A stretch of DNA of 64,000 bases, from positions 1 through 64,000 of the IMG/VR virus record IMGVR_UViG_3300002514_008521, one strand, 5' to 3'. The position numbers and the translations under genes are program-made. Below the pieces are notes generated by a model. That model saw nothing but the letters and a program-made list of their open reading frames with translations, had not been told where the DNA came from and did not search any database. Numbering within the stretch: position 1 is the first letter of the stretch; each line of letters opens with the position of its first letter. Below, piece after piece: positions 53,049 through 60,224 of this stretch. The DNA is from a virus (taxonomy: Duplodnaviria; Caudoviricetes).

Positions 53049-53187
53049 AACTGAATTCAGATAACTGCTAACTGATACTGATATCAGATTATCTTACTTT
53101 CTATATTCTATTCTACTATTTAATTAAATTCAGTATCAGTATCAGTATCAGTATCAGTACCAGTATCAGTACCAGTATCAGTACCAG
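53049..53187. repeat. Intergenic repeat structure: 9 tandem CAGTAY hexamers (53131-53184) facing inverted ACTG units and two CTGAWWTCAG palindromes, across a 43-nt G-free A/T spacer
   Basis: Read directly: CAGTAT x4, CAGTAC, CAGTAT, CAGTAC, CAGTAT, CAGTAC; palindromes at 53051-53060 and 53078-53087; spacer 53088-53130. Confidence 0.9.
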
Positions 53188-54042
53188 TTATAAAGCAACC
53201 CAATTAATATGAATCTCAGTATCATTATTAATTTCAACACCGGTGTTATTCATAACAGTCAAATAAAACCGCCGGCCCTCAGTTATACCATGTGCTGATA
53301 TAAATATTCCTCGTGACTTACATGTTGCAATGATTACGTCTTCTTCACGAACCTGTGAACTGCTTATTGTTGCCATGAATATTTGTGAACCTGGTGTTGC
53401 CGACGTTGTACCGTCTGTTGTAAGGTGTAGCGAACCCTTTCTGGTATTTTGTACAACGGTAGTCCCTGAAGCCATATCATGCTCCACTAGGCTCTTATCA
53501 ATATAGACACTCCCGGAAGTTACAACATCTCCTCCAAATACGGCAACACCGGTATTTTGTTTTCCATTAATGGTTCCGGAAACGTGAAAAAAGGTGTCCG
53601 GACCTGGATTCAATTGTCCACTAGAATCCGAAGTTTGAAACTGTACATAATTGTGGTTACCAGCAACATATATAATTCCTGCAGAGTCCTTTGTATTAAC
53701 TGTAAAATCTTGTAATGATCCGTCAGTCGACTCAGTTGGTGCCGCTCCGACCTCCACACCACCGCTGACAACCATATCTCCACCAAACACCGCGGTACCT
53801 TTGTTTTCGGAACCTTTAGAACCCATGGTACCTGATACCCAGAAAGCTACATCTGTCCCGTCCGCTGGATCAAGGGACGCCGGTGACCCCCCTGATAAGA
53901 TTAAAACCTGTTCATTATTTAGTTGTGCTATTCCTTTAAACAGTACTCGGTTTTGATTGTGACCGTTAATAATAGTGTCAACATCATGATTGTGATAGAT
54001 GTACTCGTTAAGACCTATATTACGCAGAATGATAAGTGCAGC
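53188..54042 (-). pseudogene. 5'-truncated (start-less) tail fibre C-terminal cassette; frame open for 284 codons, first ATG only at 53826
   Basis: The 72 codons upstream of the track ATG are open, contain no ATG/GTG/TTG, and are homologous to neighbouring fibres (NEYIYHN; EQVLILSGG...FWVSGT). Confidence 0.7.
53989..54003. repeat. 15-bp exact direct repeat ATTGTGATAGATGTA, copy 1 (partner at 55427-55441)
   Basis: Both copies encode YIYHN in frame in their respective fibre ORFs. Confidence 0.9.
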
Positions 54043-56194
54043 TTATCAATTTGCTGTTTGAGTCCTCATTCTCCCAAGTAACCGCTTCTGTAGCTTTTGC
54101 TACTGTATAATTATAAAGTTGGGCGCTGCTTTGTTTTTTACCGTGCCCTCGTGTTCCTGAAGAACAAATATAATCACCGATTTCAATATCACCACCTTCG
54201 TTACAAACCAAGATGTGACCATCACCGATGGCAAAGATTTGGTGGCTGTTGCCAGATGGATCGTCTGGTGGTGGGGCATACCCGGAATACACACCAAATG
54301 CAGACTTGTCTTCGGCAGAAGTTGTTGGTCCCACAACATAAGCAACTTTCTTCGGCAGCGGAGAAGAAGTTGAAATAATCTTCACAATTGTTCCGTAATT
54401 ATAAGAATCGTTACCTGCGGTGTAATCAGAAGACTGCACGGCGGCGTCGTGGACACCCGTGAACGCCCCATAAGTAACCGTGCCTCCTGAGAAAGTAATA
54501 TATCCTTGATTAGACCCATCTCCATCTGCGATAACAACAGCATAATTTGTTCCGCTGTTGTCGTCGGTGCCGCATTGAATTTTAACTCCATAACGGGTGG
54601 TGGCGTTTCCGTCGTTGTGAAACAAACAAGCATAATCAGCATATTTATTTCCACGCACCGCCAAAGCTTGTGTTGACAAGCCGGTCACCGCTCCATATGT
54701 AGCAGCGTGAACAGTCAAACCATAAGCATCTAGAGTCATTTGGTTCATTTGGCTACCCGCTTGGTTTGTTGCCCACTCTAACTGAGAAGACTCTGCTCCA
54801 TCAGTAGGGTTTATCCAAGCACACCCCATGCCGCCTGCCGAAATTTCTTCGCTATTAGTGTTTTCTAAGCCGAATCCAATAAAAGTTCCAAAACCCGCTG
54901 CTGGTGTTCCTGTCGAAAGGTGTGTAAATCGAGCACATTCTCTGGTTGCTACAGTTGTGTCGCCAGAACTTAGATATGCTCGTGTTGCTCCCGCAACATC
55001 TAAAAGGTATGTCGCAGAAGGTTCTGCTCCAATTCCGACACTACCGCCATCTTTTATTATTAATCTAGATGCGGGAGAGTTCGCGTTGTCTGTTACAAAA
55101 TGGAAGTCGCCGCTATTAGAGGTTCCATCATATACATACGCTATTCTTCCATCTGCGGTGGCGACTCTGAAATCTAAGTTTGCGTAAGCATTTGTTGTAG
55201 TGGAGGTGTTTTCAATAAGCAAGCCATCGCCCGAGGCACCGCCCGAGAAGCCATGTCCTGTTGTGATTGCTGTATTGTCATTGGCAAATTCTATTGTTAG
55301 TGTTTTGGTCGGTGTAGTTTGACCAATACCAACTTTGCCATTCGAGTCTACCGTGACCCTTTCGGTACCGGCTGTCGAGATTCTAACATCGTTGTCTTGG
55401 AAACGAATGTATGTATCAGCATCTCCATTGTGATAGATGTATTGATTGACTGTAAGGTCGCCTTCGATCAAAGCGTCGCCTTCAACCGCAAATTTGTGAG
55501 AACCCGGTGCATAATTGGAACCAACAGAAAAATAGCCGTTTGTATCTAGCTGCGCTCTAATGGCTGAAGCATATCTAAAAGTCATGTTTGTGCCTGCCGA
55601 CGTATTAATATCGGTTTGCCCGTTGCTTCGATGGGCAACGCAGTATTCCGTGGTGGTGGCTCTATCTTGGTGGGCAAAGGCGGCAAAGTCAGAACTTCCA
55701 ACATAACCAACATGCGCACGACCGATTTGAGCAGATCCGTCTTGATCATCCAACATGAGTAGTGCCGGTTCGTCGCCGCCGGTAATCTTCAATGTGCCGC
55801 TTACTTCGAGAGTTGCGCTTGGCGAGTCGGTGCCAATTCCAACGCGTCCGTTAGTATCATCATAGACTAGACTAGAAGCACCCCCAACCGAACCGCCATT
55901 ATTATATTGGACTTGGCTATCCGATCCTGCAGGTGATGAACTACCACCCCCTAGAAGACTAGTAACAGTTCCTCCAGAATCTAAAAAATAAGGTACTGTG
56001 GTACCAGATCCATTGTCCTTTATAAACAATTTTCCTTGATTAGAACTCGGGTTACCCGGGTTACCGGTCATTTCTCTTAGCTGAATCCAGCCGTCTTCCG
56101 TGCCTTCTCCATCATAAGTTAGATCTAAAGACCCAGTAATTCCAATAATGCTACTTTTTCCGTACGATCCGGATAAATCACCTGTTAGTGCCAT
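54020..56194 (-). CDS. Tail fibre protein with a C-terminal autoproteolytic chaperone-like domain
   Basis: Repeats of GRVGIGTDSP / GKVGIGQTTP / GSVGIGAEP; C-terminal GDYICSS...YTVAKA...CTYHSA. Confidence 0.75.
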   Translation of the reverse strand: MALTGDLSGSYGKSSIIGITGSLDLTYDGEGTEDGWIQLREMTGNPGNPSSNQGKLFIKDNGSGTTVPYFLDSGGTVTSLLGGGSSSPAGSDSQVQYNNGGSVGGASSLVYDDTNGRVGIGTDSPSATLEVSGTLKITGGDEPALLMLDDQDGSAQIGRAHVGYVGSSDFAAFAHQDRATTTEYCVAHRSNGQTDINTSAGTNMTFRYASAIRAQLDTNGYFSVGSNYAPGSHKFAVEGDALIEGDLTVNQYIYHNGDADTYIRFQDNDVRISTAGTERVTVDSNGKVGIGQTTPTKTLTIEFANDNTAITTGHGFSGGASGDGLLIENTSTTTNAYANLDFRVATADGRIAYVYDGTSNSGDFHFVTDNANSPASRLIIKDGGSVGIGAEPSATYLLDVAGATRAYLSSGDTTVATRECARFTHLSTGTPAAGFGTFIGFGLENTNSEEISAGGMGCAWINPTDGAESSQLEWATNQAGSQMNQMTLDAYGLTVHAATYGAVTGLSTQALAVRGNKYADYACLFHNDGNATTRYGVKIQCGTDDNSGTNYAVVIADGDGSNQGYITFSGGTVTYGAFTGVHDAAVQSSDYTAGNDSYNYGTIVKIISTSSPLPKKVAYVVGPTTSAEDKSAFGVYSGYAPPPDDPSGNSHQIFAIGDGHILVCNEGGDIEIGDYICSSGTRGHGKKQSSAQLYNYTVAKATEAVTWENEDSNSKLISCTYHSA
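55427..55441. repeat. 15-bp exact direct repeat ATTGTGATAGATGTA, copy 2
   Basis: Identical to 53989-54003, 1438 bp apart. Confidence 0.9.
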
Positions 56195-56305: not shown

Positions 56306-58516
56306 TTACTCCTCATCTATACCAAGATTAAATAATGGTGCGGGACCACGCATACCATCATCACGACCTGTTGGGTCGATTTCTTCCATCATCAACCGGA
56401 ACCATTTACCACTACGGTTATTTCTAATCGTAAGCATGTCAGGTTCCTCGACAAGGGTATAGTTTCCTCGCTCATTCGCGAGGTGAAGGTCACCCGTGTA
56501 CACGTTTTTGAACCTCAACGCACTAGACCCTAAGTCATAGGAAATGTCAGCACTTGGCATAATATCACCTGTAATAGTAATATCTCTAGTGCCAGCATCT
56601 AGCAATAAGTTGCCACCATCACTGTGAATCTGTGTGGTCGTTGCCCCACCATCAGCTCCAATAACGATTGTTCTAGTACCAGCTGTACCAATATTAATAT
56701 TTTGGTCGACATCATCATTACCCACGCTAATTGTACCAGCGGATGAGTTCACTGTGACTGCACCTGCAGCATCCACATCCGTTGTTGAACCATTAAGAGC
56801 AACAGGCATGGAACCCATACCCAAAGTAACAGAACCTGATGCCATTAGTTTTGCGAAGCTCGCATCATAATGACATTCAAATGTACCGTCCATTGCAGTC
56901 GTTATCTGTCCAAATGAGATACTGGCAGAAACATGTACCTTATCAGATACTGCATTACCAAATGTTGAACTTCCGGAAACGTAGAAACCGTTTGTTACAC
57001 CTAAGTGACCACCCGTAAACCAGTTACTTGCAGAAAGAATAGGAATAATAGACGCATTCGGTTTAAGAACAACATCACCTTTACCAGTTGTCGGAGCTGC
57101 AGTAATACCGTGATTACCCTTAACACTTCCAACTGATGCATCGGAATCTAGATCAATACGAATTTGACCCAGAGCTAATGTTGCACTACCAAAACTACCG
57201 GTAGTAATTTCAACACCTTGTCCAGCAATGATTGTTGGTTTCTGATCCGGAGTTTGTGTCGGTAATCCAGTACGCAACGTACCAGAAATTGTCACATCAC
57301 CCTGGAAAAGAGCACGTGCCTCATCCTCAGATCTTACACCATCAGTTGTAGCAGAACCCGATAGATAGAACTTTACGTCTTGCTTATTGGTCGCTGACTC
57401 AAGATTTCCATCGGAACCAAAACCAAATAATAATAACTGCTCGTTATTACCATCAGCGTAAATCATTCCACGACGATTTTTACCATACATTTCAAACATG
57501 GTAGGACCGCCATCACCAGATTCATAATCATTGACACCCGGATATCCTATTGATAGGTTACCTGATATCCATGTATCACCACCGAAAACAGCTGCAGCCT
57601 TGTGTCCATTACCCTGTTTAGAGCCAGATACAAAGAACCAACTATCAGTGCCGGCTGTGTCGGATGCACCGAACACTACATGATCTTCTGAACCATCAAC
57701 AAACAATGCATGTGTATTATTATCGGTCTCAACGCGGAAGTCACTAGCCATTCCTGCCTCGTTGAAGATAACATGACCCATTGGCACTTTGATTGCAGTG
57801 CCAGTAGCTGAGCCTGGTGATGCCGTAAGTGTACCGGTAAACACGGCGTCCGAAATATTTCCTGATAGGTAAATATTACCACCGGTCTCGCCTCCAAGCT
57901 GGACATTACCGCTGGCGTACAAATCGGCATCGCTGGCGAAGTAGACATCCTTGTCAAAGTCAACTGTCGCGTCGAATGTTGTCGTCGCATTGACCGTAAG
58001 TTCATCTACGTCATTGTTACCTATGGTTGTACTTCCGGAAACATATACATCATTCAGATAAGAATCAGATGCAACAATAAACTTGTCAGTGTTAGAGTCA
58101 CCAAATGTAACGTTACCTGAAACATGCATGTCCGCCGTAAACCAGTTACTTGCACTAAGAATTGGGATTAGCGAATCATCTATACCAAGAGCAACATCAC
58201 CTGATGTTCCTCCACCCTCTAGACCGTATGAAGCCCGAACCGCCGTGATATCACCTTCTGCAGAAAGGTTAACCGATGTGCCTCCCGGTTCCTTGAACCA
58301 AATATCAACAACACCTCCATTATTTCCGGAAACGAATAGAACACCCGTATTCCCTCCGGGAACCGCTGGTCCCCCTGAAGTTGTTATCTGATCAAAAATC
58401 AGATATCCACCATCTTCACCACTACCACTACGAACATGTAATGAACCGGTTAGACCGATTGTACCATTTTGTCCTGTGGCATTGGAGGCGGATATATTAC
58501 TAGTAATAATAGCCAT
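56306..58516 (-). CDS. Tail fibre protein (736 aa)
   Basis: GDITAV...GGGTSGDV module; C-terminal DLGSSALRFKNVYTGDLHLANERGNYTLVEE domain typical of myovirus fibres. Confidence 0.75.
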   Translation of the reverse strand: MAIITSNISASNATGQNGTIGLTGSLHVRSGSGEDGGYLIFDQITTSGGPAVPGGNTGVLFVSGNNGGVVDIWFKEPGGTSVNLSAEGDITAVRASYGLEGGGTSGDVALGIDDSLIPILSASNWFTADMHVSGNVTFGDSNTDKFIVASDSYLNDVYVSGSTTIGNNDVDELTVNATTTFDATVDFDKDVYFASDADLYASGNVQLGGETGGNIYLSGNISDAVFTGTLTASPGSATGTAIKVPMGHVIFNEAGMASDFRVETDNNTHALFVDGSEDHVVFGASDTAGTDSWFFVSGSKQGNGHKAAAVFGGDTWISGNLSIGYPGVNDYESGDGGPTMFEMYGKNRRGMIYADGNNEQLLLFGFGSDGNLESATNKQDVKFYLSGSATTDGVRSEDEARALFQGDVTISGTLRTGLPTQTPDQKPTIIAGQGVEITTGSFGSATLALGQIRIDLDSDASVGSVKGNHGITAAPTTGKGDVVLKPNASIIPILSASNWFTGGHLGVTNGFYVSGSSTFGNAVSDKVHVSASISFGQITTAMDGTFECHYDASFAKLMASGSVTLGMGSMPVALNGSTTDVDAAGAVTVNSSAGTISVGNDDVDQNINIGTAGTRTIVIGADGGATTTQIHSDGGNLLLDAGTRDITITGDIMPSADISYDLGSSALRFKNVYTGDLHLANERGNYTLVEEPDMLTIRNNRSGKWFRLMMEEIDPTGRDDGMRGPAPLFNLGIDEE
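57013..57032. repeat. 20-bp exact direct repeat CCGTAAACCAGTTACTTGCA (partner at 58135-58154)
   Basis: Both copies lie in IPILSASNWFT, 1122 bp (374 codons) apart and in frame. Confidence 0.88.
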
Positions 58517-58682: not shown

Positions 58683-60224
58683 TTATTCGTCGATTGGCTC
58701 TAAAACCATCTTATATTTTTTACCGGTAAGATTATTAATGACCGTTAGATAGTCCGCTTCCTCAACAATTGTCCAGTGGCCACGTTCATTTCTCAAATGA
58801 AGGTCACCGGTGTATATATTTGCAAATCGATGGGTATCACTTCCTAAATTAGAAGTTATATCTAACCCTGGTAGTATTGAACCGCTAATAACAACATCTC
58901 CTCCAAACACTGATACACCGGTATTTTCTTTCCCACCGATGGTTCCGGAGACGTGAAAAAATGTATCCTGGCCCGGGTTTAACTGGCCGGTAGAGTCTGA
59001 AGTTTGAAATTGTATGTAGTTGTAATTACCATTAACATAAACAATTCCTGCAGAGTCTTTTGTGTTAACCGTAAAGTCTTGTGTGGATCCGTCTTCAGAT
59101 TCCGTCGGAGGTGCACCAACCTGCATGGCGCCACTTACAACCATATCACCACCAAACAGTGATGTACCTTTTGTTGTTGTGGATCTAGATCCAACTGTTC
59201 CAGAGACAAAGAAATTAACATCAAGTGAATTAGACTCATTATTAGATGCAGCCGCACCACCTGATAGTACTAGTACACGATCGGCACATGTGTCGACAAA
59301 CAATGCGTGAGTAAAATTATCAGACTGAACTCTAAAATCATTTTCTGCCCCACATTCTCCAGAAGAATTAACTACTAGTCCCTCTTGTATTTCTGCGCTT
59401 TGTGAAACTATAAGACTTCCAGATATCATTAATGAACCGGTAACTGTTTCATCAACTTCAATGACCATTTTCTCTGCATAAAATGTGCCACTTACTACTA
59501 AGTCGCCTGCAAATACCGAAATATTTCCATTACTGGTCCCTCTATTTCCTTTAGAGCCTGACACAAAGAAATGTGTATCCAGCCCAGGTGAAGAATTACC
59601 TACTACTAATGAACCTGTAACAGATAACCGAGGGGTTATACCTACGTTCCCGGAAAATTGTGATCCACTTATTGTTGCCGTAATACTATCATTAATTTCT
59701 AATGTTACATCTCCGGAATCACCACCTCCCAATAATCCATTCCCGGCAATCACGCTAGATATATCACCGGGAAGATTTGATACTAAAACTTTTTTTGTTG
59801 AATTATCTGTTGAGTCCTGTATCACCACATAGTCTGATGACTCTGCCTTGCTTCCCAAGGCTGTTAATTCCGATACATCTAAATCTAGTGTTACATCTCC
59901 TGATGTACCTCCACCCGAAAGTCCAGTACCAGCAGTTACAGATGTAATGTCACCTGTACTGGCTGATGTTAGTAATGGTGAGCCGTCAAAATGAAGTATA
60001 CCATTCTTGTTATATAACTTATCAGTTACATCACCCTCAAATTCTCTATTTGGAAAAACAATTCCTCGAGATGGATATTTTTCATCTTTGAGGCCGACCT
60101 GTAAGTCAGGACAACTTATTATTTTTTTTGCCTGATCATTTTGAGGGTTTCTGATTGTCAGAAATTGCTCTTTAAGTAATGCCGGCAAATTTTGTAGCTG
60201 GGGCTTATCTTTAGAGTTTGACAT
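58683..60224 (-). CDS. Tail fibre protein (513 aa)
   Basis: Two GDI[TS]SV.AG.GL.GGG.SGDVTL modules; 97-aa block shared with the 53188 cassette; same YTGDLHL C-terminal domain as 56306. Confidence 0.75.
   Translation of the reverse strand: MSNSKDKPQLQNLPALLKEQFLTIRNPQNDQAKKIISCPDLQVGLKDEKYPSRGIVFPNREFEGDVTDKLYNKNGILHFDGSPLLTSASTGDITSVTAGTGLSGGGTSGDVTLDLDVSELTALGSKAESSDYVVIQDSTDNSTKKVLVSNLPGDISSVIAGNGLLGGGDSGDVTLEINDSITATISGSQFSGNVGITPRLSVTGSLVVGNSSPGLDTHFFVSGSKGNRGTSNGNISVFAGDLVVSGTFYAEKMVIEVDETVTGSLMISGSLIVSQSAEIQEGLVVNSSGECGAENDFRVQSDNFTHALFVDTCADRVLVLSGGAAASNNESNSLDVNFFVSGTVGSRSTTTKGTSLFGGDMVVSGAMQVGAPPTESEDGSTQDFTVNTKDSAGIVYVNGNYNYIQFQTSDSTGQLNPGQDTFFHVSGTIGGKENTGVSVFGGDVVISGSILPGLDITSNLGSDTHRFANIYTGDLHLRNERGHWTIVEEADYLTVINNLTGKKYKMVLEPIDE

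Follow-up and report, generated by a model that had tools for sequence, protein, structure and literature searches.

Why should a tail-fibre reading frame sit, intact and without a start codon, directly behind an expressed tail-fibre gene? This question is raised by a 64,000-nucleotide (nt) stretch of viral DNA, hereafter the window (positions 1 to 64,000 of IMG/VR record IMGVR_UViG_3300002514_008521; Duplodnaviria; Caudoviricetes), which comes from an uncultured marine large myovirus. On its minus strand, a mosaic tail-fibre gene encoding 724 amino acids (aa; protein P0001, 54020-56194) precedes a start-less frame of 284 codons (P0002, 53188-54042), and an exact direct repeat of 15 base pairs (bp) is found in both. 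The original prediction offered two readings of this arrangement: either a new fibre tip has recently displaced the old one, or the phage keeps a reserve tip that recombination between the repeats could bring into use. Our analysis favours the former, in that the start-less frame is probably the stranded 3′ portion, comprising shaft repeats and receptor-binding tip, of the original tail-fibre gene. Such an arrangement is an ordinary by-product of fibre-gene shuffling, and a host-range switch is not demonstrated.

A fibre-coding frame without a start codon

The frame ending at 53188 is indeed open back to 54042 with no start, as first proposed, since ATG, GTG and TTG are all absent before 53826. 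It is offset by +1 relative to the 724-aa open reading frame (ORF) and overlaps the last 23 nt of that ORF. Its residues 1-7 come from the 3′ end of the upstream gene, read out of frame, and show no fibre homology; the proposal that it is fibre-homologous from its very first residues consequently stands only from residue 8-9 onwards (NIGLNEYIYHN...). P0002 has 693 homologues at E ≤ 0.001, and in these the matching part is internal or C-terminal within a fibre. The homology otherwise runs along the full length of the frame, and what precedes the matching part in the fibres is a Met-bearing N-terminal adaptor. Since fibre similarity sets in at residue 8-9, the stretch of 72 codons that comes before the first ATG is genuine coding sequence lacking a start. 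The portion that we interpret as a displaced 3′ remnant (53188-54018, minus strand) comprises 276 sense codons and a stop, with no start before 53826, no ribosome-binding site (RBS) and an intact native C-terminus.

The remnant closes with a small all-beta C-terminal tip domain (aa 185-284; 53191-53490, minus strand), delimited by its position in homologues and by AlphaFold2 modelling. The same domain lies at the extreme C-terminus of P0246, P0285, P0034, P0202, P0297 and P0179, and the remnant ends as its homologues do (...NWVAL). The model reaches a predicted local distance difference test score (pLDDT) of 64-80 over aa 190-284, with seven strands in aa 194-283, and a pLDDT below 50 in the shaft. 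The modelled tip fold weakly resembles the C-terminal beta-sandwich domains of tailspikes and of the R1 pyocin fibre (Z 5.9-6.7), matches that are middling (Z <7) and not family-defining. At the other end, P0246, P0034 and P0142 open with an adaptor motif that bears a Met (MP.VGP.S) and P0285 with a Met-started N-terminal extension of its own; P0002 has neither.

The first ATG of the frame (53824-53826, minus strand), from which gene callers derive a 212-aa product (P0003), is probably not a real start. The Shine-Dalgarno sequence in front of it amounts to AGG, 4 nt upstream, compared with GGAG, AGGAG and GAGG at the three fibre genes of the cluster, and the Met at 53826 occupies a conserved internal position of the shaft repeat VSGT-M-GSKG, as in P0011. 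The remnant is probably transcribed as a 3′ trailer, since no predicted terminator separates it from the fibre stop. To judge from its sequence, the old tip is probably untranslated, because it has neither start codon nor RBS. Directly past the remnant stop lies a tandem array of hexamers (53131-53187), which belongs to the resident intergenic region upstream of a glycosyltransferase gene.

The start-less arrangement is reproduced in three independent assemblies (ENA, JGI and Logan) at 99.4-100% identity, all separate from the window's own record. Those from ENA and JGI run from within the fibre gene across both junctions and reach into the glycosyltransferase gene, and coverage by the Logan contig reaches the hexamer array. 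Because the three agree at this level, we regard the start-less structure as real and not as an assembly artefact. The CAGTAT/CAGTAC array itself varies in length: in contig L002 (2562-2650) it is 18 nt, or three units, longer than in the window and in L001, contigs that are otherwise identical.

Relatives carry adaptor and remnant in a single gene

Intact counterparts of the gene were found in other phages. Proteins P0024 (570 aa) and P0025/P0325 (556 aa) align to P0001 from aa 1 to ~270-287, and then continue along P0002 from its residue 3-9. At the nucleotide level, window positions 56198-55833 correspond to positions 169-534 of L010 (78% identity) and positions 53990-53884 to L010 966-1072 (72%), with the two matches separated by 432 nt in L010 versus 1843 nt in the window. 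The remnant is likewise 72% identical to L013 8003-8089.

L013 is the closest syntenic relative found, its adjacent glycosyltransferase being 69% identical to that of the window. Immediately upstream of the glycosyltransferase it carries a single fibre gene (556 aa) without interruption, whose adaptor is 81% identical at the aa level, and there is no start-less fragment downstream of this gene. Across the syntenic loci, a start-less fibre frame was present in 0 of 80; other copies of the cassette occur only in near-identical genomes. A search of IMG/VR for relatives with the remnant or with the 736-aa fibre, a neighbouring gene in the same cluster, found none.

The expressed fibre is a mosaic with the native stop of its tip module

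The 724-aa gene is preceded by a strong Shine-Dalgarno sequence (GGGGAG). Its product matches tail-fibre families of PHROG (phrog_9942 and phrog_18345), and PHROG tail-fibre families were also matched by the product of the 513-aa fibre gene nearby. Neither the 724-aa protein nor the product of the start-less frame has a match in Pfam, and no Pfam family places either of them with T4 gp37/gp38. Sequence searches of the PDB returned marginal matches only, among them weak ones to Bdellovibrio fibre-like proteins, and tblastn and blastn against GenBank phages returned no match.

Comparison with other marine phages resolved the gene into blocks, all on the minus strand. The resident N-terminal adaptor (aa 1 to ~121; 55833-56194) was recognised by its nucleotide identity to L010 (77-78%; gene of P0024), to the fibre gene of L013 (77%) and to L095 (75%). 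The mid-shaft block (aa ~111-258; 55419-55862) ends just 3′ of the upstream copy of the motif YIYHN; its matches over 55862-55419 are the gene of P0015 in L093, at 89.9% identity, and that of P0014 in L094, at 87.3%. This high identity stops at 55419 and 55411, i.e. 8-16 nt past the upstream YIYHN. The segment at 55309-55418 is the remainder of one conserved shaft unit (...DADTYIRFQDND...GKVGIGQTTP), which also comes after EYIYH in P0048, P0057 and P0063, with 62-72% aa identity.

The last block is the incoming tip module (aa 296-724; 54012-55308), to which 8 nt of donor-type 3′ untranslated region (UTR) remain attached. Over 55308-54012 it aligns gaplessly to L008 969-2265 (1297 nt, 88.6% identity). 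In L008 the module exists as a gene of its own (P0012, 484 aa), complete with upstream terminator, RBS and ATG, and relative to P0012 the incoming module shows a ratio of nonsynonymous to synonymous divergence (dN/dS) of 0.17 at a dS of 0.37. Similarity to L008 runs 8 nt beyond the stop (TAATA[T/A]AGGTC) and ends abruptly at 54012; the 8 nt that follow, TTAACGAG, bridge to the downstream YIYHN. The C-terminus falls on the same residue as that of P0001 in 8 of 9 aligned homologues, the ninth, P0019, ending earlier, and on this ground the stop at 54020-54022 is the module's native stop and arrived with it.

Adjacent blocks thus have different best relatives: the adaptor L010, L013 and L095 (75-78%), the mid block L093 and L094 (87-90%), the tip L008 (88.6%) and the remnant L010 and L013 (72%). 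Their boundaries coincide with short motifs, at 55833-55862 (RVGIGT), at 55419 (just past YIYHNGD) and at 55308 (GIG...KTLTIEF). Because the mid block is 90% identical to the P0015 gene right up to the upstream YIYHN, the fibre is a mosaic with motif boundaries. Base composition does not mark the insert: the idea that the intervening tip is richer in GC was not borne out, its GC fraction (0.43-0.49) comparing with 0.41-0.52 in other fibre DNA and 0.39-0.48 in the start-less frame. The fibre cluster as a whole exceeds its flanks in GC, and within it the intervening tip is unremarkable.

Two contigs (L004 2797-4158 and L008 803-2257) carry the tip module as a separate gene of 453-484 aa, each with an RBS of its own, so that among myoviruses the module is used either fused or as a fibre protein by itself. 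Downstream of the tip-module gene in L004, two genes match T4 Gp23 and gp13 in Pfam. A third kind of fibre end, distinct from both the incoming and the remnant tip, is shared by P0141, P0326, P0005, P0006 and P0143, which have the C-terminal motif ...F.N.YTGDL.LRN.RG.W... (L013 5423-6985; window 58683-60224).

How the old tip may have been stranded

The homology of the start-less frame, its colinearity with single genes in relatives, the block boundaries and the native stop are the observations from which we propose a course of events. The original gene would have run from the adaptor through shaft units to the P0002 tip, and recombination at conserved shaft-unit motifs would have brought in fibre DNA of other marine myoviruses. 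In what may have been the last event, a P0012-like module was inserted between two adjacent shaft units. Its left join would have been homologous and in frame, around GIG...KTL, and its right join illegitimate or guided by microhomology (A-AGGTC), 8 nt past the incoming stop and 8 nt before the resident YIYHN. Translation would now end at 54020, with the old tip left without a start. Insertion between shaft units would account for three features together, namely that the remnant begins a few codons before the YIYHN hinge, that copies of YIYHN flank the insert and that there is no start. Of the two readings in the original prediction, the recent displacement of an old tip by a new one is well supported, given that relatives join adaptor and module in one gene and that the insert is a foreign-like mosaic ending in a native stop followed by a short stretch of donor-type 3′ UTR.

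The age of the event can be bounded loosely. That the remnant has stayed open over 276 codons implies a neutral divergence below ~0.10 substitutions per site (P = 0.05), which fits a recent event or short silent period; by comparison, the incoming tip is separated from P0012, the nearest relative known for it, by a dS of 0.37. Between the remnant and its paralogue in the 513-aa gene dN/dS is 0.11, with dS saturated, a value that says only that most of their divergence predates any silencing.

Several observations weigh against a stranded tip. The remnant displays no decay, having no internal stop, no frameshift and a complete native C-terminus, and it may still be under selection; all copies are 99.4-100% identical, so that selection on it is not measurable. 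A mosaic boundary is found within 8-10 nt of each copy of the 15-bp repeat, which would be rare for an accidental right-hand join. Insertion between adjacent shaft units would explain this proximity, but that model is itself one that we infer. Neither the exact donor nor the pre-insertion gene was found. We also considered a Campbell-type (single-crossover) integration of a 1438-bp circle at the 15-bp motif, which explains the flanking direct repeats; it is less simple, as the donor must already carry the join of stop to LNEYIYHN.

The 15-bp repeat and other repeats of the fibre cluster

The 15-mer TACATCTATCACAAT, which encodes YIYHN, occurs exactly twice in the window, in direct orientation and 1438 bp apart, once in the 724-aa gene (aa 252-256; 55427-55441) and once 8 nt inside the remnant (53989-54003), both on the minus strand. 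The exact repeat and its consequence were correctly predicted: deletion of the 1438 bp between the copies joins 251 to 271 aa in frame, giving a 522-aa fibre. This deletion is physically possible and in frame, as it is for any pair of homologous motifs. Including its flanks, the similarity extends to 29 nt at 83% identity. The identical 15-mer is also present in L093, with related versions in L094 and L095.

The repeat exceeds chance expectation only modestly. With the five residues taken as fixed, their codons would be identical with a probability of ~1 in 26, and would match these particular codons with one of ~1 in 76 (product of codon counts). The window holds 13 exact direct repeats of at least 15 bp, of which five (20, 17, 15, 15 and 15 bp) lie in the fibre cluster. 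YIYHN is a conserved hinge of the shaft unit and recurs as a mosaic boundary. We consider it likely that the repeat is a legacy of the modular build of these fibres and a recurrent exchange point, and not a dedicated switch site.

Two further sets of repeats were seen in the cluster. Positions 53513-53812 of the remnant and 58882-59181 of the 513-aa gene (58683-60224) resemble each other over a 300-nt block (75% identity at the nt and 63% at the aa level), within which exact repeats of 17, 15 and 13 bp lie in register; recombination there would remove 5369 bp and likewise produce a hybrid fibre in frame. Within the 736-aa fibre gene, part of the sequence is duplicated (56955-57080 and 58017-58202, at a spacing of 1062-1122 nt), and this duplication includes the longest exact repeat of the window, of 20 bp.

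Alternative readings of the start-less frame

If the silent cassette were instead kept by selection, a recombinase-independent 1438-bp deletion could yield the 522-aa fibre in a few progeny, as one-way, motif-guided bet-hedging of host range built on the shaft repeat architecture. We judge this unlikely, although it has its attractions: the deletion product would be in frame and of a natural architecture (adaptor, mid-shaft, shaft repeats and tip, as in P0024 and P0034), the cassette is wholly intact down to its native C-terminus, and the repeat sits exactly at a motif that bounds mosaics in several lineages. Yet the cassette is missing from every one of the 80 syntenic relatives, and a recent event would explain its intactness just as well. 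Among 5.8 billion protein clusters, searched over length ranges that cover 522 aa, neither a full-length nor a partial recombinant was found, while the same searches returned the parental 212-aa call on 5 contigs. The repeat pair is nothing special either, being identical over just 15 bp in a window with 13 such repeats, and the remnant shares in-register repeats of equal or greater length (17 and 15 bp) with another fibre gene. The deletion is moreover irreversible, so there would be no switch. No resolvase or integrase (PF00239, PF00589) was detected in the 88-kb source record, itself estimated to be 24% complete. On these grounds the two-state reading of the original prediction finds no support. 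The junction expected after deletion (AATCAA, repeat, CATGAT) had no occurrence in viral and metagenome contigs, a result that is uninformative because patterns of the parental arrangement had none either, namely the downstream copy with both its flanks (viral contigs) and a 27-nt stretch of the repeat with its downstream flank (both collections).

The frame might also be expressed on its own, as a small protein begun at the ATG at 53826 (212 aa) or at a non-canonical codon such as ATA at 54016-54018. Gene callers predict the 212-aa product in five assemblies, short stand-alone tip proteins exist (P0246, 250 aa; P0285, 282 aa) and no terminator is predicted to separate the frame from the fibre gene; even so, we find this improbable. 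The ATG is preceded by 72 start-less codons that are clearly coding and fibre-homologous, follows a weak Shine-Dalgarno sequence and is an internal residue of a conserved repeat, and its product would have neither the adaptor motif of P0246 nor the N-terminal extension of P0285. No purine-rich RBS precedes the ATA, ATC, ATT or CTG codons near 54018-54033. A +1 frameshift near the fibre stop, fusing the 724-aa protein to the downstream frame into a product of ~1000 aa, would exploit the 23-nt overlap and +1 offset of the two frames, but is hardly credible: no slippery run occurs in the overlap, GCTGCACTTATCATTCTGCGTAA, the downstream frame is not fibre-like in its residues 1-7, the stop is native in 8 of the 9 aligned homologues (earlier in P0019) with donor-type 3′ UTR just past it, and no fused relative of this architecture was seen among the fibre homologues. 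Just as implausible is a chimeric assembly in which two co-occurring phages with common fibre motifs were mis-joined. In its favour, the fibre modules are 87-90% identical at the nucleotide level to those of other marine phages, and three short contigs end inside the fibre gene; against this, both junctions, through to the glycosyltransferase, recur at 99.4-100% identity in the ENA and JGI assemblies, and up to the hexamer array in that from Logan.

Genome setting

The source record is an 88-kb fragment of the genome of a large virus. It contains a baseplate wedge gene, a helicase gene, a PhoH-PIN gene and a weak match to a tubulin/FtsZ domain. Between the baseplate genes and the fibre cluster extends a long run of co-oriented ORFs (~16000-53000). 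Eight ORFs of this sugar-modification run (~16-53 kb) were scanned, and these are glycosyltransferases, an aminotransferase and a carbamoyltransferase. Homologues of the 643-aa glycosyltransferase were found in 84 IMG/VR contigs of up to 324 kb. The fibre cluster itself consists of three genes (513, 736 and 724 aa), followed by the start-less frame.

Three independent short assemblies break within the 724-aa gene, at about 55087, 55710 and 55749. Two of these breaks fall in the mid block, the part that other marine phages match at 87-90% identity in their fibre genes, which suggests that modules common to co-occurring phages fragment assemblies at this gene.

Discussion

The locus described here resembles several known systems in part. 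The Mu G/Gin and P1 C/Cin systems are reversible and work with a site-specific recombinase encoded next to them, inverted repeats and a cassette on the opposite strand. The window shares with these two, and with p15B Min, a constant N-terminal part and a start-less alternative C-terminal tip beside the expressed one. It differs from Mu, P1 and shufflons in that its cassette lies on the same strand behind a direct repeat, in that no resolvase or integrase was found in the 24%-complete record and in that the rearrangement would be irreversible. Neisseria pilE/pilS and Borrelia vlsE use many cassettes, non-reciprocal gene conversion and dedicated cis elements, and are conserved across strains. 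Here too a start-less partial cassette lies downstream of an expressed gene with which it has a constant part in common; the window, however, has a single cassette, and one that is absent from relatives.

A further parallel is offered by the distal tail-fibre genes of T-even phages. There gp37/gp38 is likewise a modular myovirus fibre in which the receptor-binding end is exchanged and blocks of widely differing ancestry meet at short conserved motifs. PMC12032242, citing Tetart, Desplats & Krisch 1998 (J Mol Biol 282:543, pmid 9737921), gives the conserved glycine-rich motifs as suggested hotspots of recombination. The motifs at the block joins of the window (YIYHN, RVGIG and VGIG...KTL) differ from those of gp37/gp38, and the proteins have no detectable sequence relationship, so the likeness is one of mechanism and not of family. 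Unlike in the T-even exchange, the replaced tip has been retained, start-less, downstream of the new stop. A search of the literature for a published precedent of a stranded fibre tip yielded nothing specific.

For annotation, the practical consequence is that the 212-aa 'gene' of public assemblies is most likely not a gene. Reactivation of the remnant by deletion would, if true, be a recombinase-free route to host-range change, although nothing here shows it. As a stranded old tip, the locus is an unusually clean snapshot of a change of receptor-binding end in an uncultured marine giant myovirus: all its junctions can be placed to within a few nt, other phages provide recognisable donor-type modules and the old tip has stayed intact. 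Taken together, this indicates that the YIYHN and VGIG motifs of the shaft unit act as exchange points in a very large and almost unannotated family of fibres.

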